In this document: in pieces, positions 10,771 through 53,363 of the stretch | How the letters are laid out: the number at the start of each line of letters is the position of its first letter | How positions within the stretch are numbered: the first letter of the stretch is position 1 | Origin: Monocercomonoides exilis PA203 | Taxonomy: Eukaryota > Protista > Preaxostyla | Length of the DNA stretch: 64,000 bases | NCBI GenBank assembly: GCA_001643675.2 | Contig: LSRY02000065.1 | Location: 186,001-250,000 of the forward strand | Direction of reading: 5' to 3' | Position numbers and translations under genes: made by a program | Notes under the pieces: model-generated | What the model was told of the DNA's origin: nothing | What the model saw: only the letters and a program-made list of their open reading frames with translations | Database searches by the model: none

Positions 10771-10999
10771 ATGTTGTTAAAATTTTTTCTCTTTTTATAC
10801 ATATGCTTAGCAAATTGTACATATTCAACATTTTTATTTAAATAACATTCACAAGTAGTTATTGCATTTATTAAATCGTTTATTTTTATTTAAAGTTTCA
10901 AAGAAATGGAAATAAATCGAGATTATCGGGAAATATGATCATAAATGCAATTTTATAATATGAAAAAACTTGATCTTTTTTGAGCATTTTTCTATGTGC

Positions 11000-16308: not shown

Positions 16309-19300
16309 TCAATATTTGGCTCCTGAACTTTTGCTCTTGCTTTTCCCTTTCTCCTCTTTTCCTTCACTTGAGATTTCTTCCTCCTCCTCCTCTTCTTCTG
16401 CTTCGTCTTCATCTGTCTCGAAGTCGATGGCATCAGAAACTGTGAGCACAGCTGCTCCCTTCGGGAACTTTTGGATGCACATCCGCTTCACCCAAACAAG
16501 ACTCGGCCGCTCCGATCCCTCCTGGCTCAGCAACAACTCAATCACCTCCTCTGCCTTATTTCCCAGCATTGTCTTGCTGATCGGCCTCTCTCCATTCACA
16601 ATCTTCTGCCCTGCAGCCTCTGCCTCATATTCCCCAAATGGCACCTCCAGCGTCAGGCACTCCCACAACATCATCCCAATCGAGAAAGCCACTGACTCCT
16701 TCGTAGCATCCATCTTCTTGTACATCTGCAGTTCAGGTGCCTTCCATCTCAGACACTCTTTTCTGAAGGCATCCTCATCCTCTTCAAATGCAGATGAGGG
16801 AAGGGATTCATCATCATCACCATCTTCCTCACTGGCAGATGTCACAACTGTTGATGATGAGATGGAGGATGAATCTGAATCATCTGACAATAAGTCAGAG
16901 TGCATCACAACACAAATCACCATGTGTTCCGAGAATAGAATAATGTGCGGACTCAGAGTGGAAAGCGAAGATAATCCATTTTCCATTTCATCAAAAGAGT
17001 GGAGTGCGAGATTGGCCACCCAGAACAGGATCTGAGCAGCTGTTTGTTCTCTTTCCTTCAAGGAGCCAATATCCATTTCCTTCTTCTCGTTCCTTCCATG
17101 CAGCAACATGAACAGCGAATCCCTCAGATCTACGATCAGCTTTTCATGTGGCGAAGAGCATGCCATTGCATCCACAAGATTCGACATGGATGAGGTGGTT
17201 GGGCACAGACTCTCTGATCGAACAAATGTGGAATCTGAATCAGTTGTTGAAGTGGATGAAATGGAAGGTGATGGTGATCTCTTTTGAATCTCTTCTTCTT
17301 CAACCTTCTCCAATACCCATTCAGGAATCTTATCTGAGTCTCTTCCCAGAATATATTCAGTCGATCCGCTTTCAGAAAGAAGATGCTCTGATGATTCTGA
17401 ATGTCCCAAGCTTTTCTCATACACCCTCTTCTTTGTCCTCTCTTCGTTCTTCCTCTCTGCCTCCTTCTCAGTTCTCCTCCATTGCTCTTCGGGTGACATC
17501 TCCATCGTCACCATCTCAAATGCTTTGGGGTCCTTCTTGATATTATCATTCACAATCTCTCTCAGATCTTTTGCTTCATTCTTCGCCTTTTTCCATCGAA
17601 CAATGAATATCACTGCAATTATCAGTATGATAAGAAGAACAAATGCCATGATAATCACAATCAACAACCAGTAAGATTTCCCTTCTTTTCCTCCTTCCAC
17701 CACTTTATCATTTCCAGTCTTTGGTTCTGTTTCGTTCTTCAGAATCCGTGGAGAAGTTGCAGCCAATTGTTTTCCAAACAGAATCATCACAGACACCTCT
17801 GTTTCATCTGCAACCTTTGAAATATTTTCTGATGGGATTGTTCCAATCACCTCAGTTTCCGATTCAAAGCCATCTTCCTCAAACTGATATGTCTCAACCA
17901 ACTCCACATCCCCCGTTTTATACACAAGTCTGAATGACAAATCACAAGGCACAAAAAGGGATCCCTTGAATTTGATAAAAATGTTGCTTCCATTTTCATT
18001 CACAGAAGCATCTTCCAATTTTGGAATGAAAAAAGAAGATGACCTTTCTCCTGCTACTCCCTCAAGCGTGCATCCTTCATTCAGAATCCAAAGTGATGTG
18101 TTTGGTAAAACCTCATCACCTCCTTTCAAACTGGAAATAGCCAATGAGGCAGAATCAGAACAAATAATGTTTCTTCTCACTGATGGGTAATTCTCAATCG
18201 AAGGATTGTTGTTCTCAAATAATCCCATTTCAATTGTAATAGATCCTCCACTCACACTTATCCCTCCCTTCGATGAGTTGCAAATCGTGGTGTCTCGCAC
18301 AACTGCTTCACCATTCGACAAGTCAACAACTGACCCATTCCATTTGCACACTTCATCAGCAACTCCATTCCCTTCTGTTCCTGAAACAAGATTCCCTTCA
18401 AACACACACGACTCCATCAACATCTCCTCTGCCAATGCAATCGCCACCTGGCTCCCCTTTTGTGACTCTGATGAACACTCATGAAACGAGCAGTTGTACG
18501 TCTCAAAACCACTCATCGGCTGACTTGTGCAAACAATGCACGACCCATCACTCGATCGGCTGATGTTTGTGAATGATGACACCATCAATGATAAAATGAG
18601 TGATGAGTGGCTGTTTTCAAGTGAGATCAGACTCCTTTCTTCCAAATCAATGTTTGTGGCTGCCAATTTAGAAACACTCACTTTCTTGCTCTTTCCACTT
18701 TCAATCAACGAACTTTTGCATTCCACACCATCCACTCCCACATCCTCAAATGTTGCCTTTTCTGAATGCAATATCTGAAACACAGGCTTTGAGAATTTCA
18801 AGTGGCCAACAATGCACTTTTCTGCCTCAAACAACCCTTCGTCAACAACAATCAGAGAAAAGTCAAAAAGGGTCTGTGAATTTTCTGTTGTTCTGTTCTC
18901 TGACAAGAATGAAACAGATTCCAGAATGAGAGATCCACTCAATTGGTGTATCAAGCACGAGCAGACAACATTCCCCATTCCACCAAAAACAAATGACACC
19001 TTCTCAAATCGAACAGATTCTGATGTTCTCACAACTCCCTTATTCCCAAGCTCAATCTCTCTCACTTTTATCTTCCCATTCCTGCTCGCCTCCATCGACT
19101 TGATCGTCACCTTCTCAGCTGAACACGAACCAGTCAATTCTGTTTCATTCCAAACAAATAACAGTGAATAATCCGATGGGATGATGTGGCTCACCCCAAC
19201 ATTCAGCGATGAGCATGTGCTCTTCATCTCCCCACACTGCTTGCTGTCGCTGCTGTTCTCCACAATCGATGAAACAAATATGAATTCGCTCCTGAATACA

Positions 19301-22300: not shown

Positions 22301-25300
22301 GAGCTTATATCTTCAATGATCATGGAAGTGAATGTGCCAGCAGCATTGTTTCCATCAAGGCTGATCAATGGATGATTCCCAATCACCAAGGATGATACAA
22401 CAAAAGACGAAACAGACATCTCGCCTGCTGTTGCTGACAAAAACACAAAAGATAACGCTGATCGAGAATTTTGAAATGTCAGTGAGCAGCTCTCGAGCGA
22501 AAATGATTGTGAGGAAGAAGAGAAAAATATTTCGTGATTTGCGAGTGCAGAAGGAACAGAGAAAACAAGTGATTTCAAAACAGTATTTGCACTTATTGTT
22601 ATCAAACTTTCTTTCACTCCGTTTCGTTCATTCCCCACATTCCATCCACTGTTTCCATCTTTCCCTCTGATTGTGTGCTTGAGGGAGTCAAATGTCAGCT
22701 CATCTTGCATTTCAATCATCCCATCAACAACAATCTTCTTTTCCTCTTCTTGCATTTCCAGTGAATGCTTCAGAGTCAGACAGGGAAACTCAGCAAATCC
22801 ACAACGAGAATGATCAAATGCATCAGCATTGCTCACAACAATCTCGCTTGGCAAAGGAATCAGATAAACACACAGCGGAATCGGAATCGTTTCATCCCCA
22901 TTGTGGAATCCTCGGATTTTGTTAATCGTGGAAATTGATGCTGTCAATGAAGTGATCTTCCCGCTTCTTGCTGTTGTTTCCAAATTGGGAGAATCAATGA
23001 AAATATCACTTCCCCATTTGGCCACGTTTCCATTGAATGCTGATGAAATCTGAAACTCTGCATTTGTGTCTTTCACTTTCAGCCCAATCCCTCCTCCCCT
23101 CCCTTGTGTGGCTGATGCATAACAATTCTTCACAATACCTTCATCCATAGTCAATGAACTCTCTCTTCCAGCTTCAATCATCAATCCCCCTCCAAAATCA
23201 CAGTCTTCATTCCCACACCCATCAATCGTGCATCCTTCAAGAGTTATTGAATGCGACCCTTCACCCACACTTATCAGAGATGACCCCGCTGTTGTTCTCA
23301 CAATGTTGCTGAACACACATTTATCCAGAGACAACATCACAGATGATTCTTGAGAAAGTGATATAACACTTGCAGCGCTGAATGTTCGTCCCCATCTCAC
23401 ATCTTGCATCTTCAAACTTCCATCTTCCATCTTCACAAGCGAATTCTGAATGCTCCTCTCTTCTGAATGAGCTGAATCCATCGATATGTTCATTCGCTTC
23501 ACATCCATCAATCCACTTCCCTCAACCTCAAACAGAATGCATTGTCTGTTGTTTTCAAAAGATGTATTGTGAACAACTGACAGATCATTCACAGTCAACT
23601 CTCCTGTTCCAACACAAAACATACTCAGTCCATTTCCCTCGAATTTCGTTTCAATGGAAGAACCCGATGAAGAAGCTCCATTCACAGAGATTGTTTTCTC
23701 CCCAACATCAACTCCTTTTTCTTCCACAACTGTTCCACTCAACACCTTGATTTCCTCCACAAACCCCACAATCATTTGAGACAGGCAATGGCTGATTGTC
23801 GAGCACGCATAGGATTCATTCAATCCACAGCTAAATGTGTCTTTTGCGTTTTCCTGAGCTTGAACGGAAGAAACAAATCTGCTTCTTCCTCCTTCATTTC
23901 GCAGCCATTCACTTCTATCTCCATCTGCATAATATCTCACACCTTTAGTTCTTGTCGAATAACACCACAGTACTTGTGAACCTGTGGAGTTATCATCCAC
24001 ATAAATGTCATTTCCATTTGGAGCTGTATTATTGTGGAAAAAGCAAAACCACAAGAGTTTTCCATTGTTTTCGTTTATCTTTAAGCATGTTGCCCCGCCA
24101 TTGTAGTTTGAATAGCATCCTTTAAAAAGACAATTTTTCATTACAATTCTATCAACTGCATGCCAATGAAGAAAGCCCCCACCAAGAGAATCTGCAATAT
24201 TATGCCCACTACAGTTTTGAAAATTACAATTCAATATACTATCTTTTGTTTTTGTTGCTTTGGAACTGCGAATTCCAAGTCCTCCAGCATCATTTCCTGA
24301 CCATCCATCTTTGAAAAAGCAGTTTTCAACAAGCACTTGAATTGTTATATCATCAATTTCTGCTCCTGCTCCTCCATAATTTGTTGATGCTACACAATAG
24401 CACTCAACAAATGTGGAATGCTTCACAGTACATTCTGCAATATTCAACGCATATATCCCTCCTCCTCTGGTTGAAGTTGCATTGCATTTCACAAATGACG
24501 AATTCTCAACTGTCAGTGTTGCACTCGAATTGTCATGCACATACAGCGCTCCTCCACACGAAGCGTTGCACTCAATCCATTCAGCGTTCACATACGACTG
24601 ATTTTTGGTTGTTTCATTTCGCTCAGTGTTTTTCATCTTCCGATCCACTCTTTCATTCTGAATAAATGTGCAATTATTGCAGGTGAATGAACCAGATCCT
24701 TCTGTTCCACTCACAATCCCTCCTTCAAGCACATTCATTGATCTTTTAACATCACAATCTTCTATTGAACTCATCTTCATCAATGTCACTTTTCCAGTTT
24801 GCATCTTCTCTATTTCACCACATTTCTTTGAGATGTTCGCAAATATGCAATTTTGGATTCCTTCAAAACTTCCTGAACCATCTCTCAAAAAACTGCCTCC
24901 ACTCCCACAAAACACAACATCCTCAAACTCACTGTTTCTCACAAACAGCGAAGACAAATCACCCCCTTCCATCTTCACCATACTCCCCATCATTCCACAT
25001 TCCTGACCATTCCCAACACCCAAACTCGTGTTTATCAGCCAGCATGTCCCTCCATTCCTCACATAATGACCATTCAACTCGTTTTTTCTCACAAACACAC
25101 TTCCCTCAACAAGCAGCAATGATCCTGATCTTATTTCAATCATCACACAATCATCTGGGTTTTCAAGCAACATCCCCTTCAATTCAACTGACGAGTTGTG
25201 AATATCGCAAAACATCCGAACAACACTTCCCTTCACAAAAATACCACTCTTTTCCATTCCACGAACATGGAAAGCATCATATTCATTTCTCATCTTGTAG

Positions 25301-25359
25301 TTTCTGTCTATCCCACAAATGGCTGACAACAAACACACAAGAAAAATCGAAGGAATCAT
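16309..25359 (-). CDS. Giant (3016 aa) type-I membrane receptor: signal peptide, repeated Pmp-like/pectin-lyase beta-helix modules, TM helix, degenerate TKL-type (pseudo)kinase tail
   Basis: Hydrophobic N-terminus; many GGA(L/I/V)...FxxN/C motifs; TM YWLLIVIIMAFVLLIILIIAVIFIV (~17595-17673); C-terminal CLRWKAPE...FSIGMMLWECLTLEVPF...GERP...ERPSL. Intronless ORF. Confidence 0.85.
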   Translation of the reverse strand: MIPSIFLVCLLSAICGIDRNYKMRNEYDAFHVRGMEKSGIFVKGSVVRMFCDIHNSSVELKGMLLENPDDCVMIEIRSGSLLLVEGSVFVRKNELNGHYVRNGGTCWLINTSLGVGNGQECGMMGSMVKMEGGDLSSLFVRNSEFEDVVFCGSGGSFLRDGSGSFEGIQNCIFANISKKCGEIEKMQTGKVTLMKMSSIEDCDVKRSMNVLEGGIVSGTEGSGSFTCNNCTFIQNERVDRKMKNTERNETTKNQSYVNAEWIECNASCGGALYVHDNSSATLTVENSSFVKCNATSTRGGGIYALNIAECTVKHSTFVECYCVASTNYGGAGAEIDDITIQVLVENCFFKDGWSGNDAGGLGIRSSKATKTKDSILNCNFQNCSGHNIADSLGGGFLHWHAVDRIVMKNCLFKGCYSNYNGGATCLKINENNGKLLWFCFFHNNTAPNGNDIYVDDNSTGSQVLWCYSTRTKGVRYYADGDRSEWLRNEGGRSRFVSSVQAQENAKDTFSCGLNESYACSTISHCLSQMIVGFVEEIKVLSGTVVEEKGVDVGEKTISVNGASSSGSSIETKFEGNGLSMFCVGTGELTVNDLSVVHNTSFENNRQCILFEVEGSGLMDVKRMNISMDSAHSEERSIQNSLVKMEDGSLKMQDVRWGRTFSAASVISLSQESSVMLSLDKCVFSNIVRTTAGSSLISVGEGSHSITLEGCTIDGCGNEDCDFGGGLMIEAGRESSLTMDEGIVKNCYASATQGRGGGIGLKVKDTNAEFQISSAFNGNVAKWGSDIFIDSPNLETTARSGKITSLTASISTINKIRGFHNGDETIPIPLCVYLIPLPSEIVVSNADAFDHSRCGFAEFPCLTLKHSLEMQEEEKKIVVDGMIEMQDELTFDSLKHTIRGKDGNSGWNVGNERNGVKESLITISANTVLKSLVFSVPSALANHEIFFSSSSQSFSLESCSLTFQNSRSALSFVFLSATAGEMSVSSFVVSSLVIGNHPLISLDGNNAAGTFTSMIIEDISSTVNSVLFGAENGASFTIQDSTLSVKTAQQTESLSSGSVRMISTNSVKLLKLTNNTMRGFKGNGENGGAVECTLGRDCSLEIVGGVMSGCESKGGNGGGMWVEMGEGSSFTVGNMTNANKVNEITSNDESNLFQLESCKARQTADGECGYGGGIYLHLADGTSSFTLKDVSFAECDAQEGKEIFINANDLWSVIDRRSIGFEVDLNNFTKLNGFERSTSNETFAIPLVVYLWNNFSAPVFVGGGSLSHDFSKCGYEASPCSSISKAVSIHLEGKKKDVALLEPFVFEEELGVTSHEWSIASKEDEMKCDVSDQKEGAQSGLIKNTVSVSVTGIVFSLKKSLTFHESVFECHSGKLALNGCGMEGGAETISTIFVKAVGGVVEVSEFGSENMKIGDSSIFVVEGNAKSVPSMNMTNSDFSEITFGDGCVVECHEGIIEEMSGCTFSSITGSKGSGGCISIANNDDEDDDDDDGRDFKVEIDDCTFEGCAVEEEKNEIGGGALFYEASANTNLLISLCSFYCCTAPYEEGSVGYGGGIMLKILKEEEEGKAGFVISSPVFSSGKPNNAKYGKDLFISSPLLAKSIKNETLPFVKDRLEVLTEDSMMGYDGENKECAIPLIYFWKSIESSVYIAEEGNNAVVCGFPNLPCQSVDYGMNRIGSSTVEQMMIHGICDVRSVTEMNGMKLEGTNMESDKIRFAQALEGDGDTVVECKGVVQFSELGILIPSAFDNGASILIQAGSDAIKTSVVSCSIHTIGNAEREVSFVLISASKGIISIENTEMAGFSTMHEIMSISADCVTTMSDVTFEDISLSGKSAIVMSESVISERGNDNSEEIWNILFEQCSFVNVKHNGSNNPSLLCCDVPNEVRLKIWNSTIDGCGSTSSNEGGGVFILLNERGRLEMNHTNVTGCFCSNIGRGGGMFLKSQSVSQKALPFVLSNITFKENVASKGRDVFVKCTDLDSQISESQFLINFGEPFVRELAIWGCTADNYGDEEDLLRMVFVFRSEFIFVSSIVENSSDSKQCGEMKSTCSSLNVGVSHIIPSDYSLLFVWNETELTGSCSAEKVTIKSMEASRNGKIKVREIELGNKGVVRTSESVRFEKVSFVFGGMGNVVCSCLIHQLSGSLILESVSFLSENRTTENSQTLFDFSLIVVDEGLFEAEKCIVGHLKFSKPVFQILHSEKATFEDVGVDGVECKSSLIESGKSKKVSVSKLAATNIDLEERSLISLENSHSSLILSLMVSSFTNISRSSDGSCIVCTSQPMSGFETYNCSFHECSSESQKGSQVAIALAEEMLMESCVFEGNLVSGTEGNGVADEVCKWNGSVVDLSNGEAVVRDTTICNSSKGGISVSGGSITIEMGLFENNNPSIENYPSVRRNIICSDSASLAISSLKGGDEVLPNTSLWILNEGCTLEGVAGERSSSFFIPKLEDASVNENGSNIFIKFKGSLFVPCDLSFRLVYKTGDVELVETYQFEEDGFESETEVIGTIPSENISKVADETEVSVMILFGKQLAATSPRILKNETEPKTGNDKVVEGGKEGKSYWLLIVIIMAFVLLIILIIAVIFIVRWKKAKNEAKDLREIVNDNIKKDPKAFEMVTMEMSPEEQWRRTEKEAERKNEERTKKRVYEKSLGHSESSEHLLSESGSTEYILGRDSDKIPEWVLEKVEEEEIQKRSPSPSISSTSTTDSDSTFVRSESLCPTTSSMSNLVDAMACSSPHEKLIVDLRDSLFMLLHGRNEKKEMDIGSLKEREQTAAQILFWVANLALHSFDEMENGLSSLSTLSPHIILFSEHMVICVVMHSDLLSDDSDSSSISSSTVVTSASEEDGDDDESLPSSAFEEDEDAFRKECLRWKAPELQMYKKMDATKESVAFSIGMMLWECLTLEVPFGEYEAEAAGQKIVNGERPISKTMLGNKAEEVIELLLSQEGSERPSLVWVKRMCIQKFPKGAAVLTVSDAIDFETDEDEAEEEEEEEEISSEGKEEKGKSKSKSSGAKY

Positions 25360-28300: not shown

Positions 28301-29612
28301 AATCCAATTGTGGAGTTCTTTTTCTGGAAATGGAGATTCCTGAACGGAAAGATCTTCTGAAATTGATTTCTTTAATTATTTTTTTTCTCTCTTCATTCAA
28401 TTCTGAAAATCTCTTTTGTTCTACCATCTTTGCACTGATTCGTTCTCATTCCATTCACACTTCTATGTGAGCAATTTAGCAAAAAAGCAAAAGTTGAAAC
28501 AAAAAAGAAAAGAAGAAAATTTTCTTTTATTTTTTCAATGACACTTGTTAAATATCTCTTTGTCATTCTTTCCAAAGTGCGTACATTTCATTCAACATTT
28601 GGCCAATCAACAAACAACCACATTTAAGTGCGAAATGAAAGAACAATCCAGAAATCAAACATTCATATGAACCCCTACACAATGGATCATAACTGAGAAT
28701 CCGGGTTATTCTTTTCTGAAGCAGGGCATTGAATGGATAATAATCACCAGATAGAAAGTTTGAAATATATGGAGAAAACAATAAAGATATGGGATAAAAT
28801 AAACTCAAGGAGATGAAACAAGACCACTCAAAGATTTTTCTCAAAGAATAATTTTCCAATAAAAAGCAGGATATGATTCCTTTCCATCATGCAACTCACA
28901 AAATGAAGATTCTCCTGTTGAATTGTGTCACACACTTTAATTTGTTTTCTGTTCATCTCTTTGAAGAATCCATTGAAATGACAGCTTTGATGGCTGAAGG
29001 ATGAAACACAGCACAAAAGAATTACCAACATGTTGCCCATGAGATTCACTGACGCAGTTGAAAATACAACTCTCTCAAGAGTTGTGAATACTTCAGAGCA
29101 ATTGGAAAGTGAGATTTCTGAAACCGCATTGAAGGAACAGTTCCAGAAAAAAGAATAATATCTGGAGTGAAGCGATCAGGCGAATGCTTTCGTCAAGCCC
29201 CAAGATGATTGAGATTGAGCAAAACCAAAGAAGGTGGAAAAGCAAAGCTCGAGATGAACCATAACGAAATCACAATAAAACACAAGAAAGCGAACATGTA
29301 GATTACCAAAATCTTCAAAATGTGTGCATCTGAATTGTGAAAATCCTTCTCTCATTCTCATTAAAGATTGTTTGTCTTTTCTATCTTTATACTTTGCTTT
29401 TTATTGTTTTTCACATCATCTGTCATTTCGAGATGATATACGTTCAATCCTTCAACTGTACAAAAATATGCAATTGTTTTGATTCCAAATTGAAAGAAAA
29501 AAGAAATACATAAAAAAATAATTATTGGTGATCAGAAATAATTCATAGAATGGGAGATATTGAAAAAAATTGAGAATTTTTGTTTCGAGGAGCTGGACGG
29601 CAGTTTTGAAGC

Positions 29613-35600: not shown

Positions 35601-36011
35601 AGAAAAGAAAGAGACAGACAAAAAGAAAAAGAAAGAGAAAGAGAAAGAGAAAGAGAAAGAGAGAAAGAAAGAGAGAAAGAGAAAGAGAAAGAGAAAGAGA
35701 AAGAGAAAGAAAAGGTGAAGGAGAAAAAACAAGATAAAAGAAAAGATGAGAAATCGACAATAGAAAACGATATCAAAAGAAGAAAGGAGCGCTTTCAAGA
35801 GAATTTTAAACAACGAGAAATTAATTCAAGCGACAAGTTGGCGAAAAGCGGAGATTTAAAAGCAGAAAAGGAAAGTAATTCCAATGAAAGAAACGAAGAG
35901 AAAGAGAAAGTTCAAAGAGACCGCTGCACTTCAGCAGATTATTCGGAAACTGCAAAACATGAAACTTCAGATGAGAATACAAGTATACAAAGCGATGATT
36001 CCTCAAAGTAG
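29613..36011 (+). CDS. RBBP6: RBBP6/Mpe1-like protein (DWNN, CCHC zinc knuckle, RING, Pro/Gly-rich and RS/ER-rich tail), ~7 exons
   Basis: DWNN MTNVIHYRF...ISVRDLKEEI...DANSGEEY...VIVSRVP; knuckle CGRCGGRGHSTMNCP followed by SGIP; RING VPAELQCPLCRRLMKDAVTMTCCGAVICRQC...CPVC. Introns 29782-30022, 30117-30266, 30301-30535, 30661-30799, 31046-31623 and 33405-33636 give a continuous frame. Confidence 0.88.
35430..35712 (+). repeat. (GAGAAA)n coding microsatellites (Glu-Lys/Glu-Arg repeats) in RBBP6
   Basis: Runs of gagaaagagaaa are directly visible. Confidence 0.8.
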
Positions 36012-36345
36012 CAAAACGAAGGACAGAGACGAATCTATCGCTTCAGAAATGCAACCAAATCCAGAAAAGTGAAAAAGCTGAAATGTCAGAACTCTATTTG
36101 CACTTAAAGATTGTGAATTTTTGGCTTTAAAGATGTGAAGTTTTATTTTCTTTTATTATAATTTCATTTCATTATTTTTATAATCTAAGATTTATACAAA
36201 TAGCTATTTAATTAAAAATTTAATTCTTCATTCAATATTTTCAATAATCAAAAAATAGTCATTCAAAACATTTTGATCAAAATGATCATGAAATATCCGA
36301 AAAATGCCTTAACGATCAGGAGATCAACTTTTCATCTGGAAAACC

Positions 36346-36906
36346 ATGAAATACCTGCCTAAAAAGCAATTAAAAGTCAATCAAGTCATCAAGCCATCAA
36401 ACCGTAGAGTTTGTATTAATTATATTTGAAAACGAAAAATAGGATCTCATTCGAATTGTTTTTTTTATTTGAACACCTGTTTAAGCGTTTATGCAAAAGA
36501 GTGAAGCTTGTCAGAGAAGTTGTCCGTGAAATTTCTGGATTTAGCCCTTATGAAAAGCGTATTATGGAGTTGTTGAAACTCGGAAAGGAAAAGAGAGCTT
36601 TAAAATTTGCAAAAGCAAGAGTATGCTTTTTTAGTAATGAAAGCGATGTTTCTTATTATTTGAAACCATTGTAATTAAATAACAATTATTTTTAAAAATT
36701 ATTATTTATTTTTCCAGTTGGGAACACATCAACGAGCTTTGAAAAAAAGATCTGAACTTGACAGAATTCTTCATCAAGCCGCAACCAAAAAGAAGGCCGA
36801 CCATCATGTTCACGAACACAAAGAGCACAAGGATCATAAGGAACATAAAGGTGTAAAAAAAACCGAGAAAAAAGAAGAGAAGAAGGTTGAAGTTAAAAAG
36901 AACTAG
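36346..36906 (+). CDS. RPL36: 60S ribosomal protein L36 (eL36), 3 exons, atypical N-terminus and His/Lys/Glu-rich C-terminal extension
   Basis: [42 protein letters not shown]|[14 protein letters not shown]. Introns 36409-36485 and 36621-36717; start codon uncertain. Confidence 0.85.
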
Positions 36907-37528
36907 ATGATATTTTATTATAAGAATTTGCTGTGAAATGCTGATCTCATTTCTTTAAAAAAACAAGCTTCATCAAATACATGGTGATTTTGTTTATTTG
37001 TTTCAAAGAGTTGTGTTTAATGATGTATTTTTAGTGGAGAGTTAAATAGTCATTTTGTTAGTGTGATAAGCATAGTTGAAGAACTTCTCAAGAAAATGTT
37101 ATACGAATTTGCTCTTCAATTTTCAAATATTTATCAATCAAATCTGCAAGAGGATGTTTGTGGACTTTTGCAAATAAAAGTCAAAACAACAAAAGCTGAA
37201 TTGAAATTACAAGTCATAAAGAAGAATAAAGTGAAAAAATTCAAAAAAATAAATTGCTTTCCTTTGTCTTGAAATTTTGTTAAACAAAACAGGTTGTTTG
37301 TGTGTTATCTTCTTATGAAAGAATAAGTTTTAATTCTGAAAAAACTTTTCTGTCTTTTTGTTTTCACTCAATTTTTTCTTTATATAAAAATTTTGAAGTT
37401 CATTTTAACCAAGTTTCCATTCATCTCGTTATTTGTTTTCATATTATGTGAAAATTTCAGAAGAAGTTGAAAATTGATCAAATTTTTGTATTATTTAATT
37501 TTGAATTGCCACAAACTTTGTTTTGGCT

Positions 37529-40500
37529 ATGAACAGATGCTTGCTTTTGTTTGCCTGCTTTCTTTCGGCTAAAACATTTGAAGAGCAATATTGCTTTCGA
37601 TATTTCGGTATAAAAAGTAGCAATACAGATTCCGATTCATTTGTGCGCAATTTCTGTTTTTTATCAAAAAGATTCAGCATATTAAATACTTATTCGACAT
37701 CACATGCAATTCCATCAACTAAATTTGGACTGTTTTCTCCTCGCAACACGAAGGGGTTGAGTCTAAGTCAGTTCACTTCTGATAATTCATTTTTTGGATT
37801 ATTCAACTCCACACTCGAATTGAAAAGAATTACAATTGAATTACTTTCTTCGCCATTTGTGCTCGCAGCAAGAAATTCAACCGTCGAACTCGATTCTTGC
37901 ATTTCACAACAAAAATCTGTTTCGCCGTTTCATCTTGAAAGCGGGTCAATCTGCCTCACAAACTTGAGTTTGATCCCCCAAAAGAGTCTTAACCCCTCCA
38001 GTCTCATATTTTCATCTGATGATTCCAATTCAGCCATTTTGAAGAATTCTATCATCACAGATCTTTCTATTTCATCATCAGACAATTTCCTGCTATCAGG
38101 AAAGAGCAAAAGCGAACAGATTCATGATTGTGCCTTCAGGAACATGTCTGTGAAATATGACAAGAAAAGTGATTATCAAATGGACCATTTATGCCATTTC
38201 AATTCAATGGAGAACTGCTTTATTTGTTCTTCTTTGAATGTGTTTGAAGGAGGGATCTCGAGTGGATCCTATTCTTCTCAAGAATTTGTTTGCAAAAACA
38301 CAACAATTAGCAATGGAAAAAGAGAAACAAATGCTCTTCAAAGAAAAGAAAAATTGGACTCAACAGAAAGTCAATCATTTTCATTGTGTGAATGGACTGA
38401 TTGCACAGCCGAACAAGGAGGTGCTCTTTTTGTGCATGACAATGAAAATGCAATATTGACAGTTAAAAACTCTTCATTTTTGAGATGCAATGCTTCTTCG
38501 ACAAGAGGAGGTGGAATATATGCTTTGAAAATTGGAGAATGCAATGTTAAACATTCCACATTTGAAAAGTGCTTTTGTGCTTCGTCAACTGATCACGGAG
38601 GGGCTGGAATAGAATTTGAAGGAATAAGTGTGCAACTATTTGTTGATAACTGTTTGTTCAAAGATGGATGGAGCGGAAATGATGGTGGAGGAATCGGTGC
38701 TTGGGGGGCAAAAACAACAAAAACAAAAGATTGCATATTGAATTGCTTTTTCCTAAATTGTAGTGGAAATAACTATGACGACGGTGGTGGAGGAGGCTTT
38801 AAACAATGGAATGCAGTTGATAAAATTGTATTGAAAAATTGTCTTTTTCAAGGATGTCATGCAGATAAGAGAGGTGGAGCTGTGTGCATTGAGACAAATG
38901 GATACACTGGAAATCTTTTGTGGTTTTGCTTTTTCCACAATAATACAGCTCCAAATGGAAATGATATTTTAATTTATGATAACTTCACAGATTCCCAAAT
39001 TGTTTTCTGTTATTCAACAAGAGCTGATGGGAATAGATATTATGCAGATGGAGATAGAAGTGAATGGCTGCCAAATGAAGGAGGAAGAAGCCGATTTGTT
39101 TCATCAAAGACGAATCAAGCGAATGCAAAAGATACGTTCAGCTGCGGATTGGACGAAGACCATCCGTGTGAATCATTGAGCCATTGCATCACGCAACTTA
39201 TTCCTGAATATGTGGAGCGCATTAAAATCATGAATGGGACGATTTTTGAACACAGCGAGGTGATTGTGAGATCAAATGCTTTTGCCATTAGTGGAGCAGG
39301 TCTGGGGAAAAGTGTCGTTGTAACTGGATTTATATCTGAAAGGCTGACTCTTTTTTCAGTTGGACCAGGAGAATTGAGTGTGAGCGATCTGTCTGTGATT
39401 CACAACACATCGTTTGAAAACAACAGGCGATGCAGACTGTTTGAGATTCAGGGAATTGGGTTGATGGATGTGAAGCGAATGAACATTTCGATGGATGCAG
39501 CTCATTCGGAAGAGAGGAGCATTCAAAACTCACTTGTGAAACTGGAAGGGGGAGAGTTGAAGATGCAAGATGTGAGATGGGGACGAACATTCAGCACTGC
39601 AAGTGTGATATTAGTGCCTCAGGAATCGTCTGTTTCGCTGTCTCTGGACAACTGCACATTCAGCAACATTGTTGGAACAACAGCAAGATCATCGTTGATA
39701 GGTGCCAGTGAAGGGCCATTTTCGATAACTCTTGATAGATGCACGATTGATGGCTGTGGGAGTGAAGATTCTGAGTTTGGAGGGGGAATGATGATTGAAG
39801 CTGGAAGAGAGAGTTCATTGAATGTGAAAGGAGGCATTGTGAAGAACTGTTTTGCCTCGACCACTCAAGGGAGAGGTGGAGGGGTTGGACTGAAAGTGAA
39901 AGATACAGGTGCAGAATTTCTGATTTCTTCAGCATTCAACGGAAACAGGGCCAAATGGGGAAGTGATATTTTCATTGATTCTCCCAATTTGGAATCAACA
40001 GCAAGAAGCGGGAAGATCACTTCATTGACAGCATCAATTTCCACGATTAACAAAATCCGAGGATTCCACAATGGGGATGAAACGATTCCGATTCCGCTGT
40101 GTGTTTATCTGATTCCTTTGCCAAGCGAGATTGTTGTGAGCAATGCTGATGCATTTGATCATTCTCATTGTGGATTTGCTGAGTTTCCCTGTCTGACTCT
40201 GAAGCATTCACTGGAAATGCAAGAAGAGGAAAAGAATATTGTTGTTGATGGGATGATCGAAATGCAAGATGAGCTGACATTTGAATCCTTGAAGCACACA
40301 ATCAGAGGGAAAGATGAAAACAGTGGATGGAAAGTGATTGACGATTCTGATGGAAGCAAAGAAAGCATGATAACAATAAGTGCAAATACTGTTTTGAAAT
40401 CACTTGTTTTCTCTGTTCCTTCTTCACTCGCAAATCACGAAATCTTCTTCTTTTCTTCTTCACAATCATTTTCGCTTGAGAGCTGCTCACTGACATTTCA

Positions 40501-43500
40501 AAATTCTCGATCAGCCTTGTCTTGTGTGTTTTTATCTGTAACAGCAGGCGAGATGTCTGTTTCGTCTTTTGTTGTATCATCCTTGGTGATTGGGAGTCAT
40601 CCATTGATTCGCCTTGACGGAAACAATGCTACAGGCACATTCACTTCCACGATCATTGAAGATATAAGCTCGACAGTTAATAGTGTTTTGTTTGGAGCGG
40701 AGAATGGAGCGTCTTTTACGATTCAAGATTCAACGCTTTCAGTGAAAACAGCATCACAAACAGAATCATCATCAACAGGATCAATTCGAATGATTTCCAC
40801 AAATTCAGGAAAGTCAATAAAATTGTCGAACAATACGATGAGAGGATTCAAAGGGGGTGGAGGAAATGGGGGAGTAATTGAATGCACACTTGGGAGAGAT
40901 TGTTCTCTTGAAATTGTTGGAGGGATGATGTTCGGGTGTGAGAGCAAAAGAGGAAATGGAGGAGGGATGTGGGTTGAGATGAAAGAAGGATCATCATTCA
41001 CTGTGGGAAACCTGACAGAGGCAGACTCAGCAAGGGCAATATTTTCCAGCGAGGAAAGGTGTTTATTTCAACTTGAGAACTGCAAGGCAAGGCAAACAGC
41101 AGATGGAGAGTGTGGATATGGAGGAGGGATTTATCTTCATTTGGCTGATGGGGCAAGCTCATTCACTTTGAAGGATGTTTCATTTTCCGCTTGTGATGCT
41201 CAAGAAGGGAAAGAAATCTTCATCAATGCAAATGATCTTTGGAGTGTGATTGACAGGAGATCGATTGGATTTGAGGTTGATTTGAATAACTTCACAAAAT
41301 TGAATGGGTTTGAGAGATCAACATCGAATGAGACATTTGCCATTCCGCTGGTGGTGTATCTGTGGAACAACTTTTCAGCACCAGTGTTTGTGGGAGGAGG
41401 ATCATTGAGCCATGATTTCTCGAAGTGTGGATTTGAAGAGTTTCCATGCTCATCCATTTCGAAGGCAGTGTCAATCCATTTTGAAGGGAAGAAAAAGGAT
41501 GTTGCTCTTCTTGAGCCATTTGTCTTTGAGGAGGAACTGGGGGTGACTTCAAATGAATGGAGCATTGCATCCAAAGAGAATGAGATGAAGTGCGATGTTT
41601 GTGATCAGAAAGAGGGAGCTCAAAGTGGATTGATTGAAAGCTCGGTGTCTGTGTCTGTGACTGGCATTGTATTTTCTTTGACGAAATCGCTGACGTTTCA
41701 TGAGAGTGTGTTTGAGTGCCATTCAGGGAAGCTCACACTGAATGGATGTGGGATGGAAGGAGGCACTGAGACTATTTGGACAGTGTTTGTGAAGGCTGTT
41801 GGAGGGGTTGTGGAGGTGAGTGAGTTTGGATCAGAGAATATGAAAATTGGAGATTCATCGATATTTGTTGTTGAGGGGAATGCTGAAAGTGTGCCTTCGA
41901 TGAATATGACTCATAGTGATTTTTTGGAAATCACATTTGGTGATGGGTGTGTTGTTGAGTGCCACGAGGGGATCATTGAAGAGATGTCTGGATGCACATT
42001 TTCATCGATCACTCGTTGGAAGGGAAGTGGAGGATGCATCAGCATTGTGAACAATGAGGATGAGGATGATGATGGAAGAGATTTCAAAGCGGAAATAGAT
42101 GATTGCACATTTGAAGGGTGTGCTGTTGAAGAAGAGAGAACTGAAATTGGAGGAGGTGCACTCTTTTGTGATGTATCTTCAAAAACGAATCTGTTGATAA
42201 GTTTGTGTTCGTTTTATTGTTGCACAGCACCATATGAAGAGGGAAGTGTTGGATATGGAGGAGGAATAATGCTGAAGATGCTGAAAGAGGAAGAAGAAGG
42301 AAAAGCAGGGTTTGTGATATCCTCACCAGTTTTTTCATCTGAGAAGCCAAACAATGCGAAATATGGGAAGGACATGTTCATTTCATCTCCGTTGCTTATC
42401 AAGAGTGTCAAGAACGAAACCCTGCCATTTGTGAAAGACAGATTGGAGTTACTGACAGAGGACTCGATGAGGGGATATGATGGAGAAAACAAAGAGTGTG
42501 CAATCCCGCTGATCTATTTCTGGAAAGAGGTTGGAACGAGTGTATATGTTGCAGAGAAAGGAAACAATGTTGTTGTGTGTGGATTGAGCGAGTATCCATG
42601 CCGATCTGTTGATTATGGGATGAATCGTATCGGCAGTTCAACAGTCGAGCAGATGATGATTCATGGGGTTTGTGATGTGAGGAGTGTGACAGAGATGAAT
42701 GGGATGAAACTGGAAGGAACAAATATGGAATCAGACAAAATCCGATTTGTGAAAGGGATTGAAGAAAATGGGAATGTTGTTGTTGAATGCAAAGGGGTTG
42801 TTCAGTTCGGTGAATTGGGGATTCTGATTCCCAGTTCCTTTAGCAACGGAGCAAACATCCTCATCCAGGCAGGTTCAGATGCAATCAAAACGGGTGTTGT
42901 GAGCTGTTCAATTCACACAATTGGCAATGCTGAAAGAGAGGTGTCATTTGTATTGATCAGTGCATTGAAAGGAATTGTTTTGATTGAAAATACAAAGATA
43001 GCTGGATTCTCAACGATGCATGAGATAATGAGCATGTCAGCTGATTGTGTGACAACCACGAACAATGTGACATTTGAAGATATTTCATTGAGCGGGAAAA
43101 GTGCAATTGCGATGAGTGAAAGTTTGACTTCTGGAAGGGAGAATGATAATTCAGAAGAAATTTGGAATATTCTATTTGAGCAATGCAGCTTTGTGAATGT
43201 GAAGCACAATGGGTCAAACAACCCTTCATTGCTTTGCTGTGATGTGCCAAATGAAGTGAGACTGAAAATATGGAATTCAACAATAGACGGTTGTGGATCG
43301 ACAAGCTCGAATGAAGGAGGAGGAGTGTTTTTTTTTCTCAATGAGAGGGGGAGACTGGAGATGAATCGCACAAATGTGACAGAGTGTTTCTGCTCGAACA
43401 TTGGGAGAGGAGGAGGACTGTTTTTGAAATCACAGAGTGTTGCACAGAAGGCATTGCCATTTGTGCTGTCGAACATTACATTCAAGGAGAATGTTGCATC

Positions 43501-46258
43501 GAAAGGGAGGGATGTGTTTGTGAAGTGCACAGATCTTGACTTGCAGATAAGTGAGTCACAGTTCCTGATAAATTTTGGGGAGCCATTTGTGAGGGAGCTG
43601 GCGATATGGGGGTGCACAGCAGACAATTATGGGGATGAAGAGGATCTGCTGAGGAGAGTGTTTGTGTTCAGGAGCGAATTCATATTTGTTTCATCGATTG
43701 CAGAGAACAGCAGCGACAGCAAGCAGTGTGGGGAGATGAAGAACACATGCAGATCACTGAATGTTGGGGTGAGCCACATCATCCCATCGGATTATTCACT
43801 GTTATTTGTTTGGAATGAGACAATATTAACCGGTTCGTGCTCGGCTCAAAAAATGACAATCAAGTCGATGGAGGCGAGCAGGAATGGGGAGATAAAAGTG
43901 AGAGAGATTGAGCTTGGGAGTGAGGGAGCTGTGAGAACATCAGAATCTGTTCGAATTGAGAAGGTTTCATTTGTTTTTGGTGGAATGGGGAATGTTGTCT
44001 GCTCGTGCTTGATACATCAGCTGAATGGATCTCTCATTCTGGAATCTGTTTCATTCTTTTCAGAGAGCAGAACAGCAGAAAATTCACAGACCATTTTTGA
44101 CTTTTCTCTGATTGTTGTTGAAGAAGGGTTGTTTGAGGCAGATAGGTGCAGTGTTGGCCACTTGAAATTTTCAAAGACTGTGTTCAACATATTGCATTCA
44201 GACAGGGCAACATTTGAGGATGTGGGAATAGATGATGTGGAATGCAAGAGTTCGTTGATTGAATGTGGGAAAAGTGAGAAAGTGAGTGTTTCGAAGTTGG
44301 CGGCCACAAATGTTGATTTGGAAGAGAGAAGCCTTATATCACTTGAAAACAGCCATTCATCACTCGTTTTTTCATTGATGGTATCATCATTCACAAACAT
44401 CAGTCGATCAACAAGCGGGTCTTGCATTGTTTGCTCGAGTCATCTGATGAGTGGTTTTGAGATGTGCAACTGCTCTTTTCACGAGTGCACATCAGAATCA
44501 CCAAAGGGGAGCCAGGTGGCGATAACATTGGCTGAGAAGATGTTGATGGAGTCGTGTGTGTTTGAGGGGAATCTTGTTTCAGGAACAGAAGGGAATGGAG
44601 TTGCTGATGAAGTGTGCAAATGGAATGGGTCAGTTGTTGACTTATCGATGAGTGAAGCAGTTGTGAGAGACACCACGATTTGCAACTCGTCGAAGGGAGG
44701 GATGAGTGTGAGTGGAGGCACAATATTTATCAAAGATGAAAGATTTGAGAACAACAATCCTTCGATTGAGAAATATCCATCAGTGAGAAGAAACATTATT
44801 TGTTCTGATTCTGGAACATTGAATGTGATGAGTTTGAAAGGAGGTGATGGAGTTTTACCAAATACATCGCTTTGGATTCTGAATGAAGGATGCAATTTTG
44901 AAGGGATTGCATCTGAGAGGGTGTCTCCATTCTTCATTCCAGCGTTGGAGGGTATTGAAGCAAAGGGAGTGGGAGAAGAAGAGGAGATTGTGTTCAAAGG
45001 GAAGCTGCTGCTGCCTTGCAACTTGTCATTCATGGTTGTGAAACAGATGGGAGAAGAAAAGCAGATTGAAAAATATGAGTTCGATGAGAGTGGATACGTG
45101 TCAGAGACCGAAGTTGAAGGGAGACTGCCAAAAGAGACGATAATCAAGGCAGGAGACGAAACAGAAGTGTTCGCTTGCATTCTGTTTGTGGATTCTGGCA
45201 AGCAATCATCCACTGATTCTTTCATTCTGAAGAACAGAAGTGAGCCTAAACTTAAGGAAGATGAAAGAATATCTGAGGAAGAAAACAAAACTGAATGGAG
45301 TTTGATTGCCTTCATTGTTTGTGTGATTGCTGTTGCGGTTCTGTTATTTGTTATTATTCTGGTTGTTGTTCTTGAGCAGAAGAAGCATAATAGAGGTGGA
45401 AGGATATTTGAAGATGCAGACATTGATGGAAAACAGAATGGGGGAATTTGCGAATGGAGAAAAGAAGATAATGGGCAAAGAGTTGAGAAAGAGGGAGAAA
45501 TGAGAAAATTATTGGTTGAAGAATCGGGAAATGAGATAGATGTGATTGCAGAGGAGGTTGAGGAGCTGGAGGTGTGCGAGAACAAAGAAATGGTTGAGAG
45601 TGGATTTGATTGTGAGGAAGTGATAAAGATGGTGCCAATGAGCTATTTGGAAACGCAGACGATTGCTACGCTTCAAAGTTGTGGAGAAGAAGAAAACATG
45701 GAGGCAGGTGCTGGTGAAAATGAAGAGGGGAATTTGTTTAAAAGAGAGAGGAAAACGAAGAAAAGGAAGCTCAGAAAGGGAAAGAAAGAGAAGCAAGTGG
45801 AAATGGATGAGAAAGTGTGGAATGATAGGGAAGGGGCTGAGGTTGGATTTGCAGAGATGAGTGGGATTGGAGTTGATAAGAGAAGAGATGGAACTCAGAC
45901 AGAATGTTATGTTGGGATATCTTCTAAACGTGATTGTCATTTTTCGATCGATGGAGACTATTCAGAGGAAGTGGGTTCGAACAAGTTATTGGAAGAAGAA
46001 ATGAAAAATGAAGATAGGGAAGAGGAAGATGGTGTTATAATGGAAATCGGGGAAGTTCCAGAAGCAGGAAGGAGGATAACTGAAGAAATTGAAAGGGAAG
46101 AATTTGCGAAAGAGAGTGAAGGGGTTGAAGGGGTTGAAGGGGAGGAAAAGCCAAAGAAAAGAAAGAAAAAGAAAAAGAAAAAGAAAAGCCAGAAAAGAGA
46201 AGAAAAATTGGGAATTGTTGAGAACATAGTTGAAATGGGATTGTTAGATGCGGGATAG
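37529..46258 (+). CDS. Giant (~2909 aa) type-I membrane protein, paralog of 16309-25359, lacking the kinase-like tail
   Basis: Signal-like MNRCLLLFACFLSA; ectodomain largely colinear with and often identical to the minus-strand paralog; TM WSLIAFIVCVIAVAVLLFVIILVVVL (~45296-45373); acidic and Lys-rich tail. Confidence 0.85.
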   Translation: MNRCLLLFACFLSAKTFEEQYCFRYFGIKSSNTDSDSFVRNFCFLSKRFSILNTYSTSHAIPSTKFGLFSPRNTKGLSLSQFTSDNSFFGLFNSTLELKRITIELLSSPFVLAARNSTVELDSCISQQKSVSPFHLESGSICLTNLSLIPQKSLNPSSLIFSSDDSNSAILKNSIITDLSISSSDNFLLSGKSKSEQIHDCAFRNMSVKYDKKSDYQMDHLCHFNSMENCFICSSLNVFEGGISSGSYSSQEFVCKNTTISNGKRETNALQRKEKLDSTESQSFSLCEWTDCTAEQGGALFVHDNENAILTVKNSSFLRCNASSTRGGGIYALKIGECNVKHSTFEKCFCASSTDHGGAGIEFEGISVQLFVDNCLFKDGWSGNDGGGIGAWGAKTTKTKDCILNCFFLNCSGNNYDDGGGGGFKQWNAVDKIVLKNCLFQGCHADKRGGAVCIETNGYTGNLLWFCFFHNNTAPNGNDILIYDNFTDSQIVFCYSTRADGNRYYADGDRSEWLPNEGGRSRFVSSKTNQANAKDTFSCGLDEDHPCESLSHCITQLIPEYVERIKIMNGTIFEHSEVIVRSNAFAISGAGLGKSVVVTGFISERLTLFSVGPGELSVSDLSVIHNTSFENNRRCRLFEIQGIGLMDVKRMNISMDAAHSEERSIQNSLVKLEGGELKMQDVRWGRTFSTASVILVPQESSVSLSLDNCTFSNIVGTTARSSLIGASEGPFSITLDRCTIDGCGSEDSEFGGGMMIEAGRESSLNVKGGIVKNCFASTTQGRGGGVGLKVKDTGAEFLISSAFNGNRAKWGSDIFIDSPNLESTARSGKITSLTASISTINKIRGFHNGDETIPIPLCVYLIPLPSEIVVSNADAFDHSHCGFAEFPCLTLKHSLEMQEEEKNIVVDGMIEMQDELTFESLKHTIRGKDENSGWKVIDDSDGSKESMITISANTVLKSLVFSVPSSLANHEIFFFSSSQSFSLESCSLTFQNSRSALSCVFLSVTAGEMSVSSFVVSSLVIGSHPLIRLDGNNATGTFTSTIIEDISSTVNSVLFGAENGASFTIQDSTLSVKTASQTESSSTGSIRMISTNSGKSIKLSNNTMRGFKGGGGNGGVIECTLGRDCSLEIVGGMMFGCESKRGNGGGMWVEMKEGSSFTVGNLTEADSARAIFSSEERCLFQLENCKARQTADGECGYGGGIYLHLADGASSFTLKDVSFSACDAQEGKEIFINANDLWSVIDRRSIGFEVDLNNFTKLNGFERSTSNETFAIPLVVYLWNNFSAPVFVGGGSLSHDFSKCGFEEFPCSSISKAVSIHFEGKKKDVALLEPFVFEEELGVTSNEWSIASKENEMKCDVCDQKEGAQSGLIESSVSVSVTGIVFSLTKSLTFHESVFECHSGKLTLNGCGMEGGTETIWTVFVKAVGGVVEVSEFGSENMKIGDSSIFVVEGNAESVPSMNMTHSDFLEITFGDGCVVECHEGIIEEMSGCTFSSITRWKGSGGCISIVNNEDEDDDGRDFKAEIDDCTFEGCAVEEERTEIGGGALFCDVSSKTNLLISLCSFYCCTAPYEEGSVGYGGGIMLKMLKEEEEGKAGFVISSPVFSSEKPNNAKYGKDMFISSPLLIKSVKNETLPFVKDRLELLTEDSMRGYDGENKECAIPLIYFWKEVGTSVYVAEKGNNVVVCGLSEYPCRSVDYGMNRIGSSTVEQMMIHGVCDVRSVTEMNGMKLEGTNMESDKIRFVKGIEENGNVVVECKGVVQFGELGILIPSSFSNGANILIQAGSDAIKTGVVSCSIHTIGNAEREVSFVLISALKGIVLIENTKIAGFSTMHEIMSMSADCVTTTNNVTFEDISLSGKSAIAMSESLTSGRENDNSEEIWNILFEQCSFVNVKHNGSNNPSLLCCDVPNEVRLKIWNSTIDGCGSTSSNEGGGVFFFLNERGRLEMNRTNVTECFCSNIGRGGGLFLKSQSVAQKALPFVLSNITFKENVASKGRDVFVKCTDLDLQISESQFLINFGEPFVRELAIWGCTADNYGDEEDLLRRVFVFRSEFIFVSSIAENSSDSKQCGEMKNTCRSLNVGVSHIIPSDYSLLFVWNETILTGSCSAQKMTIKSMEASRNGEIKVREIELGSEGAVRTSESVRIEKVSFVFGGMGNVVCSCLIHQLNGSLILESVSFFSESRTAENSQTIFDFSLIVVEEGLFEADRCSVGHLKFSKTVFNILHSDRATFEDVGIDDVECKSSLIECGKSEKVSVSKLAATNVDLEERSLISLENSHSSLVFSLMVSSFTNISRSTSGSCIVCSSHLMSGFEMCNCSFHECTSESPKGSQVAITLAEKMLMESCVFEGNLVSGTEGNGVADEVCKWNGSVVDLSMSEAVVRDTTICNSSKGGMSVSGGTIFIKDERFENNNPSIEKYPSVRRNIICSDSGTLNVMSLKGGDGVLPNTSLWILNEGCNFEGIASERVSPFFIPALEGIEAKGVGEEEEIVFKGKLLLPCNLSFMVVKQMGEEKQIEKYEFDESGYVSETEVEGRLPKETIIKAGDETEVFACILFVDSGKQSSTDSFILKNRSEPKLKEDERISEEENKTEWSLIAFIVCVIAVAVLLFVIILVVVLEQKKHNRGGRIFEDADIDGKQNGGICEWRKEDNGQRVEKEGEMRKLLVEESGNEIDVIAEEVEELEVCENKEMVESGFDCEEVIKMVPMSYLETQTIATLQSCGEEENMEAGAGENEEGNLFKRERKTKKRKLRKGKKEKQVEMDEKVWNDREGAEVGFAEMSGIGVDKRRDGTQTECYVGISSKRDCHFSIDGDYSEEVGSNKLLEEEMKNEDREEEDGVIMEIGEVPEAGRRITEEIEREEFAKESEGVEGVEGEEKPKKRKKKKKKKKSQKREEKLGIVENIVEMGLLDAG

Positions 46259-53249: not shown

Positions 53250-53363
53250 ATATGATTACACAAATACAATTGGGTAAAATTCAAATGAAATTCCCATAAA
53301 TGTTTTTGTATTGAAAAACAAAAAAGTGAAGTTTTGAAATATGCACATTATTTGAAAAAAAAT

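Follow-up and report, generated by a model that had tools for sequence, protein, structure and literature searches.

Two neighbouring receptor-like genes of Monocercomonoides exilis as probable patchwork members of a large pseudokinase-tailed family

Described systems closest to the gene pair

Monocercomonoides exilis is a gut protist and the first eukaryote known to lack mitochondria. Two very large neighbouring genes of this species, gene 1 and gene 2, were analyzed in a stretch of 64,000 nucleotides (positions 186,001 to 250,000 of contig LSRY02000065.1, strain PA203; hereafter the window), and the single-pass proteins that they encode are compared here with known surface proteins and kinases. 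The transmembrane kinases of Entamoeba and the receptor-like kinases of plants are large single-pass families with TKL-type tails and varied ectodomains. The Giardia VSP, Plasmodium var and trypanosome VSG proteins combine a variable outer part with a conserved membrane-proximal end, and mosaics of them arise by recombination among copies. In contrast to the first two groups, the ectodomain of the M. exilis proteins is a predicted beta-helix and the catalytic motifs are lost in every tail examined; unlike in the last three, no recent near-identical donors were found here among proteins of 1604-5105 amino acids (aa).

Statements cited below by PMC number refer to the available parts of those papers. 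Tyrosine kinases are the largest family of M. exilis, with 332 predicted members, 320 of them TKL (PMC6759080; PMC8767320), and in the long-read assembly they overlap unclassified repeats (PMC8767320). The present family shares the organism with this expansion, and most of its members carry the kinase profile PF07714, some being named putative kinases, a likeness of organism, profile and names; it differs from the expansion as described, for which the available text of both papers, the supplement of the former lying outside it, mentions no ectodomains, membrane helices, dead active sites or mosaics (PMC6759080, PMC8767320). DGF-1 of Trypanosoma cruzi and the bodonins of Bodo saltans are similar in their uninterrupted genes of about 10 kb, their hundreds of dispersed copies, their pectin-lyase-like folds, their Cys motifs about 400 aa apart, their two main groups and their reticulate evolution; likened in this way by description, they differ in having seven to nine C-terminal membrane helices, eight or nine in DGF-1, as against one here, followed by a pseudokinase or acidic tail (PMC9967923). 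The Pmp adhesins of chlamydiae and trichomonads share GGA(I/L/V) and FxxN repeats, a beta-helix and, in trichomonads, a C-terminal membrane helix, but the window proteins exceed the 67-68 kDa trichomonad examples four- to fivefold in length, are multi-module, have a kinase-derived tail and gave no Pfam Pmp match (PMC6701047). The family belongs neither to DGF-1 nor to Pmp, nor is it one of active receptor kinases. No description of its architecture or of its mosaics was found in a literature search that lay outside subscription papers and the supplement of PMC6759080; the available part of PMC10463195 does not mention oxymonads, and, searched by term, the available parts of PMC10463195 and PMC10703272 contain nothing on this family. 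A several-hundred-copy family of receptor-pseudokinase type in M. exilis is apparently undescribed.

The best explanation of the data presented below, to which we give a probability of about 0.72, is that both genes are patchwork members of a several-hundred-copy M. exilis family of single-pass proteins, that they were put together when dispersed copies occasionally recombined or underwent gene conversion at short conserved blocks, and that they encode predicted rod-like beta-helix surface receptors or adhesins with a non-catalytic tail.

Segment-by-segment ancestry of genes 1 and 2

As originally predicted, the window holds two divergent genes of about 9 kb some 12 kb apart; their divergent start Mets are separated by 12.2 kb. 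They had also been called intronless: both frames are unbroken, and the one RNA run available, which applies to gene 2 only, shows no splice joint inside that gene. With residues numbered from the first codon of each open frame, the likely start Met is aa 15 in gene 1 and aa 9 in gene 2, and a hydrophobic, signal-like stretch follows each. Each protein has one membrane helix near aa 2580-2600, its single strong hydrophobic stretch of 21 residues, and then a soluble tail, of 294-429 aa in the two genes. The signal peptide, ectodomain and single transmembrane helix of a receptor-like kinase were found in both.

A search with gene 1 returned 581 proteins at E<=1e-10; among the 120 listed of these, two were the window's own and the 118 others, which are named, all belong to M. 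exilis, PF07714 being carried by 89 of the 120. A profile-free search of 50%-cluster representatives, with the neck and two modules as query, gave 399 matches at E<=0.001, and the 20 that were looked up comprised 13 M. exilis proteins, two from Blattamonas nauphoetae and five ENA proteins. Family members begin with a head (about 220 aa) and a neck (about 290 aa), continue with modules of 340-550 aa, usually four or five in number, and end in a membrane helix and a tail. Each module opens with a Cys-Gly-x5-Cys motif, by which the modules were delimited since self-BLAST at E<=1e-3 detected no internal repeats in any of five proteins. The modules of the 120 closest proteins clustered into two types of stalk, subfamilies A and B, whose homologous modules are 33-44% identical to each other; members of subfamily A differ by one whole module. 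Some members (P0123, P0143, P0145, P0146 and P0152) measure 4197 to 7986 aa, and in P0123 the nearest relative shifts along the length, a middle block being without a close relative. The features of the two genes, as read from their frames, diagnostic sites, trees and models, are as follows.

16309-25401 (-): open reading frame of gene 1, 3030 codons; likely start Met at 25359
16309-25359 (-): gene 1 protein, 3016 aa from the likely Met, single-pass; head and stalk of type A, juxtamembrane domain of type B, common tail T1
24739-25359 (-): gene 1 signal peptide and subfamily-A head (diagnostic sites, trees)
18031-24738 (-): gene 1 neck and five modules (342, 419, 387, 383 and about 420 aa), each opened by a C-G-x5-C-x-S/T-I motif
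18006-18201 (-): gene 1 A-to-B junction interval, aa 2401-2466, within a block conserved between subfamilies
17725-18030 (-): gene 1 juxtamembrane immunoglobulin (Ig)-like, IPT/TIG-like domain of subfamily-B type (trees, predicted fold)
17596-17670 (-): gene 1 transmembrane helix (hydrophobicity)
16312-17595 (-): gene 1 cytoplasmic tail T1, with a helical stretch, a Ser/acidic region and a putative kinase C-lobe remnant (about 16471-17148)
37505-46258 (+): open reading frame of gene 2, 2917 codons; likely start Met at 37529
37529-46258 (+): gene 2 protein, 2909 aa from the likely Met, single-pass; head of type B, stalk of type A, transmembrane helix and tail of type C
37529-38581 (+): gene 2 signal peptide and head with the beginning of the neck, subfamily-B type, G-poor
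38579-38605 (+): gene 2 B-to-A junction interval, aa 359-367, crossed by two contigs of short reads
38603-45250 (+): gene 2 neck, five modules and Ig-like domain, of subfamily-A type
about 39160-39360 (+): gene 2 patch without a close relative found, aa 553-618
45248-45256 (+): gene 2 A-to-C junction, aa 2582-2584, directly past the conserved pre-membrane motif SSTDSFILKN
45311-45379 (+): gene 2 transmembrane helix, subfamily-C type
45380-46255 (+): gene 2 tail T2, acidic and basic, without kinase remnant, native to subfamily C
18014-44949: inverted DNA repeat (shared part), arms 18014-24583 and 38389-44949, 87.9% identical

The nearest relatives of both genes change segment by segment, and at sites diagnostic for reference sets of 40 pure A and 47 pure B proteins the changes are sharp. 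In gene 2, 44 of the 46 sites called as far as aa 359 are of type B; from aa 367 onwards the type is A, with 93 of 95 sites in the last module. In gene 1, all 75 sites of the last module up to aa 2401 are A and all 18 from aa 2466 on are B, and this same interval is used by P0004 and P0058. Trees of heads and Ig domains were built by a quick search under LG+G4 from 38 chosen proteins with heads, and the module 4 tree from 37 rows. The gene 2 head nested in the B heads and the gene 1 Ig domain in the B domains (Shimodaira-Hasegawa-like approximate likelihood ratio support 99 each), and a clade of gene 1 and gene 2 was rejected by the approximately unbiased (AU) test in the head (p-AU 1.1e-48) and in the juxtamembrane Ig domain (0.001). 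In module 4, the two genes were sisters with a support of 81. Tail T2 is native to a third subfamily, C: it is found on eight proteins with ectodomains 13-37% identical to gene 2, and P0038, which carries it too, switches to C at the same position as gene 2. At the level of protein comparison, these data show gene 2 to be made of a B head, an A stalk and a kinase-less C tail from at least three sources, to which the patch at aa 553-618, whose best relative does not exceed 56% identity, may add a fourth. By the same kind of comparison, they show gene 1 to be an A body with a B Ig-like domain and a T1 tail. The segment exchange within a large family that had been proposed from the two genes alone was supported in this way, and the congruent trees and uniform synonymous divergence (dS) expected of a simple duplication were not found: segment trees conflict and dS ranges from 0.015 to saturation.

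Direct comparison of the pair gave a profile with five steps, namely head, neck, stalk, juxtamembrane part and tail. Identity is 26% in the head (a forced global alignment), 60% in the neck, 88% in the stalk (gene 1 aa 761-2360) and 46% in the juxtamembrane part, and the tails cannot be aligned, in line with the prediction that they are unrelated; dS amounts to 0.76 in the neck and 0.17 in the stalk, and both ends are saturated. At the DNA level, the similarity forms a single inverted alignment of 6580 columns with 87.9% identity, and no shared flanks were detected when they were looked for in this comparison. The longest identical run, of 202 nt, lies inside a 74-residue tract that is identical in both proteins, as had been pointed out. 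The heads, described as barely alignable, proved to be distant homologues with 34% identity over aa 40-345. The NV(L/F)EGG motif proposed as their boundary is present at 24738/38234, but it was rejected as the junction: B sites run on to aa 359, and the gene 2 junction at aa 359-367 is about 350 bp further. The head of gene 2 is indeed less rich in G than its body, with fractions of 0.153 and 0.281, as against 0.309 in the gene 1 head. A comparison of 18 B heads with 30 A heads identified low G as a trait of every B-type head, these being rich in Ser, Phe, Leu and Pro, and low G was rejected as proof of recent transfer since it tracks the amino-acid make-up of B heads. Silent differences between the genes occur in clusters (121 of 1357 sites; sum of squared run lengths, p 1e-4; longest run, p 0.008; at fourfold sites alone, p 0.009 for squared runs), which fits patchy conversion. 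The gene partner was the best match in some stalk windows only, so exchange is not confined to the pair.

Across the family, a two-state segmentation placed an A/B switch in 21 of 120 proteins, 16 of these within aa 2320-2477, where the identity of A and B columns reaches 0.63-0.68 compared with 0.38 overall. Head type equals stalk type in 50 of the 63 proteins with head data (eight swapped, five with a third head type), a result that does not favor free combinatorial assembly, and Ig domain type equals stalk type in 81 of 105 (14 swapped, 10 other). A head-donor search, covering proteins of 1604-5105 aa and thus leaving short cassettes and pseudogenes outside its scope, found among 76 hits a best match of 72-78% identity to the gene 2 head, similar to the identity of B heads with each other. 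The gene 1 Ig domain is 85-89% identical to those of B members. With best head donors at this distance, the swaps look old, or the donors are absent from the protein sets; as far as proteins can tell, the swaps look evolutionary and not programmed.

Predicted folds, tails and surroundings

An AlphaFold model of gene 2 aa 9-860, made with 60 family rows, had a mean predicted local distance difference test (pLDDT) value of 76.7 and repeating short strands from model residue 88, the first 88 residues being unresolved. Foldseek returned 15 matches to this model at E<=0.001, and those shown were all beta-helix proteins, with alginate lyases, glucanases and phage tailspikes, about 10% identical, at the top. 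A parallel beta-solenoid is predicted for this part of gene 2; from shared motifs and weak mutual similarity, the other four modules would have the same fold, and homology to the gene 2 model predicts beta-helices for the gene 1 modules too. The 100 residues that precede the membrane were modelled as an IPT/TIG-like Ig domain (Z 9.5, root-mean-square deviation 3.1 over 90 residues). Each ectodomain has 14-15 FxxN, three strict GGA and 12-13 GG[AG]x motifs together with 38-39 N-glycosylation sequons, and a Pfam scan of both whole proteins detected no family at E<=0.01, including no Pmp repeat, middle or autotransporter domain. The proteins are probably long glycosylated surface rods, and polysaccharide binding is a possibility raised by the predicted fold alone.

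Tails were classified in 185 proteins of at least 1000 aa with a membrane helix and a tail, drawn from 284 proteins: 154 carry T1, the tail of gene 1, ten carry T2, the tail of gene 2, ten carry T3, and 11 are singletons. Scanned alone, the T1 tail of gene 1 matched PF07714 (E 1.3e-5) at profile positions 164-252 of 258, its C-terminal third only, and T1 matched ILK, MLKL, TNNI3K and BTK in the PDB over about 90 residues. None of the 154 T1 tails has a glycine loop, a VAxK or an HRD-like motif, and a DFG-like triplet occurs anywhere in only three, while WxAPE is kept in 149; T1 of gene 1 itself has no glycine loop, VAIK, HRD or DFG. A full two-lobed kinase domain is not present in the T1 tails. 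Because the match covers the C-terminal third and the catalytic motifs are missing, T1 is very likely a pseudokinase remnant, as judged by profile and motifs. In T2, the profile scan found no trace of a kinase. T1 is about 82% identical even across ectodomains less than 28% identical, and its core is at least 75% identical in 48 of 51 carriers whose module 4 is less than 28% identical to that of gene 1. By these protein comparisons, the T1 tail, and not the stalk, is the constant part of the family; the variable head on a conserved stalk that was first suggested is at odds with this, stalk subfamilies being 20-45% identical. A second case of tail swapping was observed in P0042, where a T3 tail (with WxAPE and without catalytic motifs) stands on a subfamily-A stalk. 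Additionally, the public models of P0003 and P0019 begin at later start Mets and lose the signal peptide; many other relatives also seem to be N-terminally truncated in their models, by which the receptor layout would be hidden.

The pair is placed among ordinary genes and not within an array. Housekeeping genes occupy 1867-12513 (a short-chain dehydrogenase at 1867-3381, a WD40 protein at 4837-6003 and enolase at 9379-10770), and a DDE_1 transposase fragment lies at 14494-15471 (-), about 0.8 kb downstream of gene 1. A low-complexity RING-finger gene (31556-36011) separates the two receptors, and a strongly covered RNA contig (36506-36883, with a GT..AG intron at 36620-36718) ends about 650 bp upstream of gene 2. 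Within the neck of gene 2, at 38969-39035, the short-read DNA contigs X1 and X3 join across 65 bases, and this may represent a paralogue or an allele with a replaced patch. Gene 2 is adjoined by a Cys-rich membrane protein (48513-52505, -), which carries Kelch repeats and an ephrin-receptor-like motif and lies in two frames. An AT-rich element of about 1 kb (54552-55580), which resembles a transposon of the foldback or miniature inverted-repeat (MITE) type, has long inverted ends built of 20-21 bp tandem units, begins with CACC, ends with GGTG and has TA on either flank; a weak related piece lies near 7730-7861. A dispersed direct repeat of 280 bp (8722-9000 and 53356-53633, 78% identical) and an inverted pair of 74 bp (7761-7834 and 8379-8452) were also observed. 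A hidden kinase exon or other family fragment in the window was considered and discarded, as tblastn with the 120 proteins matched, beyond the two open frames, only 5' extensions of gene 1.

Competing explanations and meaning for the family

A simple inverted local duplication, followed by uneven selection with fast divergence of head and tail, would agree with two genes that are close neighbours and sisters in module 4, with P0004 as a third close relative. It would not explain why the differing parts nest in other existing subfamilies instead of being novel sequence, nor why synonymous divergence rises from the stalk to saturation at the ends without shared flanks; unless the alignments are wrong, the AU tests refute it, and we regard it as hardly credible. 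The mosaics might also be assembly chimeras, with repeats misjoined at their most similar blocks. The junctions do lie in conserved blocks, where misassembly would be expected as well, and the read check, made on gene 2 only with short-read contigs assembled from one RNA run and two DNA runs, covered the gene in pieces: no contig spans it, and at the A-to-C junction the contigs listed have about 30 letters on the left and were not counted as a bridge. However, contigs X1 (38435-38707) and X3 (38373-38937), from one sample that may be the assembly's own data, bridge the B-to-A junction; NCBI and EukProt, whose gene models differ elsewhere and which presumably stand for two assembly versions, give letter for letter one and the same gene 2 protein over both junctions; the same junctions recur in P0004, P0058 and P0038; the frames are open across all of them; and the newer assembly is based on long reads (PMC8767320). 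An artefact of this sort is very improbable.

That the family is selfish or near-neutral repeated DNA, with mosaics as by-products without benefit and gene 2 perhaps as a non-signalling or decaying copy, would be in keeping with the very high copy number, the overlap with unclassified repeats (PMC8767320), the many truncated gene models and the dead kinase motifs. We consider it improbable in view of two intact 9-kb frames, a nonsynonymous divergence (dN) of 0.060 against a dS of 0.168 between the two stalks, the retention of signal, membrane helix and module cysteines, and the relatives in Blattamonas nauphoetae. An active variable-surface or recognition repertoire, with one or few members expressed per cell and new combinations of head, stalk and tail still being generated, draws on the hundreds of copies, a large paralogous set with mosaic members, the repeated use of the same junction blocks, the gut endobiont lifestyle as given in the available sources, and the near-constant tail on very different ectodomains (48 of 51), a layout that recalls variant surface proteins. 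By contrast, the head-donor search among proteins of 1604-5105 aa gave no near-identical donor, its best hits resembling the divergence among B heads; in 50 of 63 proteins the head is of the stalk's own type; there is no excess of amino-acid change, dN/dS being at or below about 1 in all 100-codon windows with computable dS; and the junctions showed neither a cassette array nor a repeat. This repertoire is unlikely.

Several points weigh against the patchwork explanation as well. The reference sets were obtained after dropping 32 mixed or odd proteins, and paralogues were compared as proteins only, so that the recombination evidence and the family-wide comparison stand at the protein level. 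The 21 switch counts are not independent, six of the mosaics may be one event plus duplication, and two of the 21 switchers (P0022 and P0117) look like a third type and not like true switches. By construction, an interval that lacks diagnostic sites is conserved, and this favors reading such intervals as conserved blocks. At fourfold sites, the longest identical run was not significant (p 0.056). The Foldseek template modelling scores were low (0.16-0.25, as for long solenoids), the tail model was poor (pLDDT 48) and its structure-search matches were taken up by the Ig domain, and the RNA contigs that fall on gene 2 have low depth and might derive from DNA.

Under the patchwork explanation, dispersed copies would recombine occasionally where sequence is still shared, a mechanism that we infer because of the junction pattern, and heads, modules, Ig domains and tails would thereby move between subfamilies. 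Strand exchange would be primed by four conserved blocks (in gene 1 numbering, the neck at aa ~295-345, a module border at ~805-845, the pre-Ig region at ~2360-2466 and the pre-membrane motif), and in-frame products would survive because exchange takes place in conserved blocks that lie close to the borders of domains. Patchy conversion inside subfamily A may have come later, perhaps with the two inverted neighbours as partners, and the time scale of the whole process would be evolutionary rather than per-cell. The least-supported steps concern function: the ligands may be polysaccharides of bacterial prey or of host mucus, conserved T1 may be a shared docking or trafficking module, and the swapping of parts would then rewire binding end, reach and output. 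A dead kinase C-lobe more than 80% identical family-wide would point to such a shared role in docking or trafficking, or to homogenisation of the tails.

The observation behind the original prediction was therefore confirmed and its interpretation partly supported. Programmed diversification is an outcome that we doubt, and so is the wider proposal that the largest gene family of M. exilis, listed under tyrosine kinases, is an oxymonad recognition repertoire in which hundreds of giant beta-helix receptors would share one constant pseudokinase tail, built-in exchange blocks would reshuffle heads, modules, Ig domains and tails, and each cell would express some members only, to probe bacterial prey or to escape the host; that proposal is a long shot. 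Recombination in large protist surface families is already well known, which limits the surprise. Nevertheless, a headline feature of the M. exilis genome may be re-read, part of its 'kinase' expansion being catalytically dead, receptor-like proteins with predicted beta-helices that would swap parts across subfamilies, and the exact junctions, the three tail classes and the constant tail would make oxymonad surface recognition testable in a cultured species.

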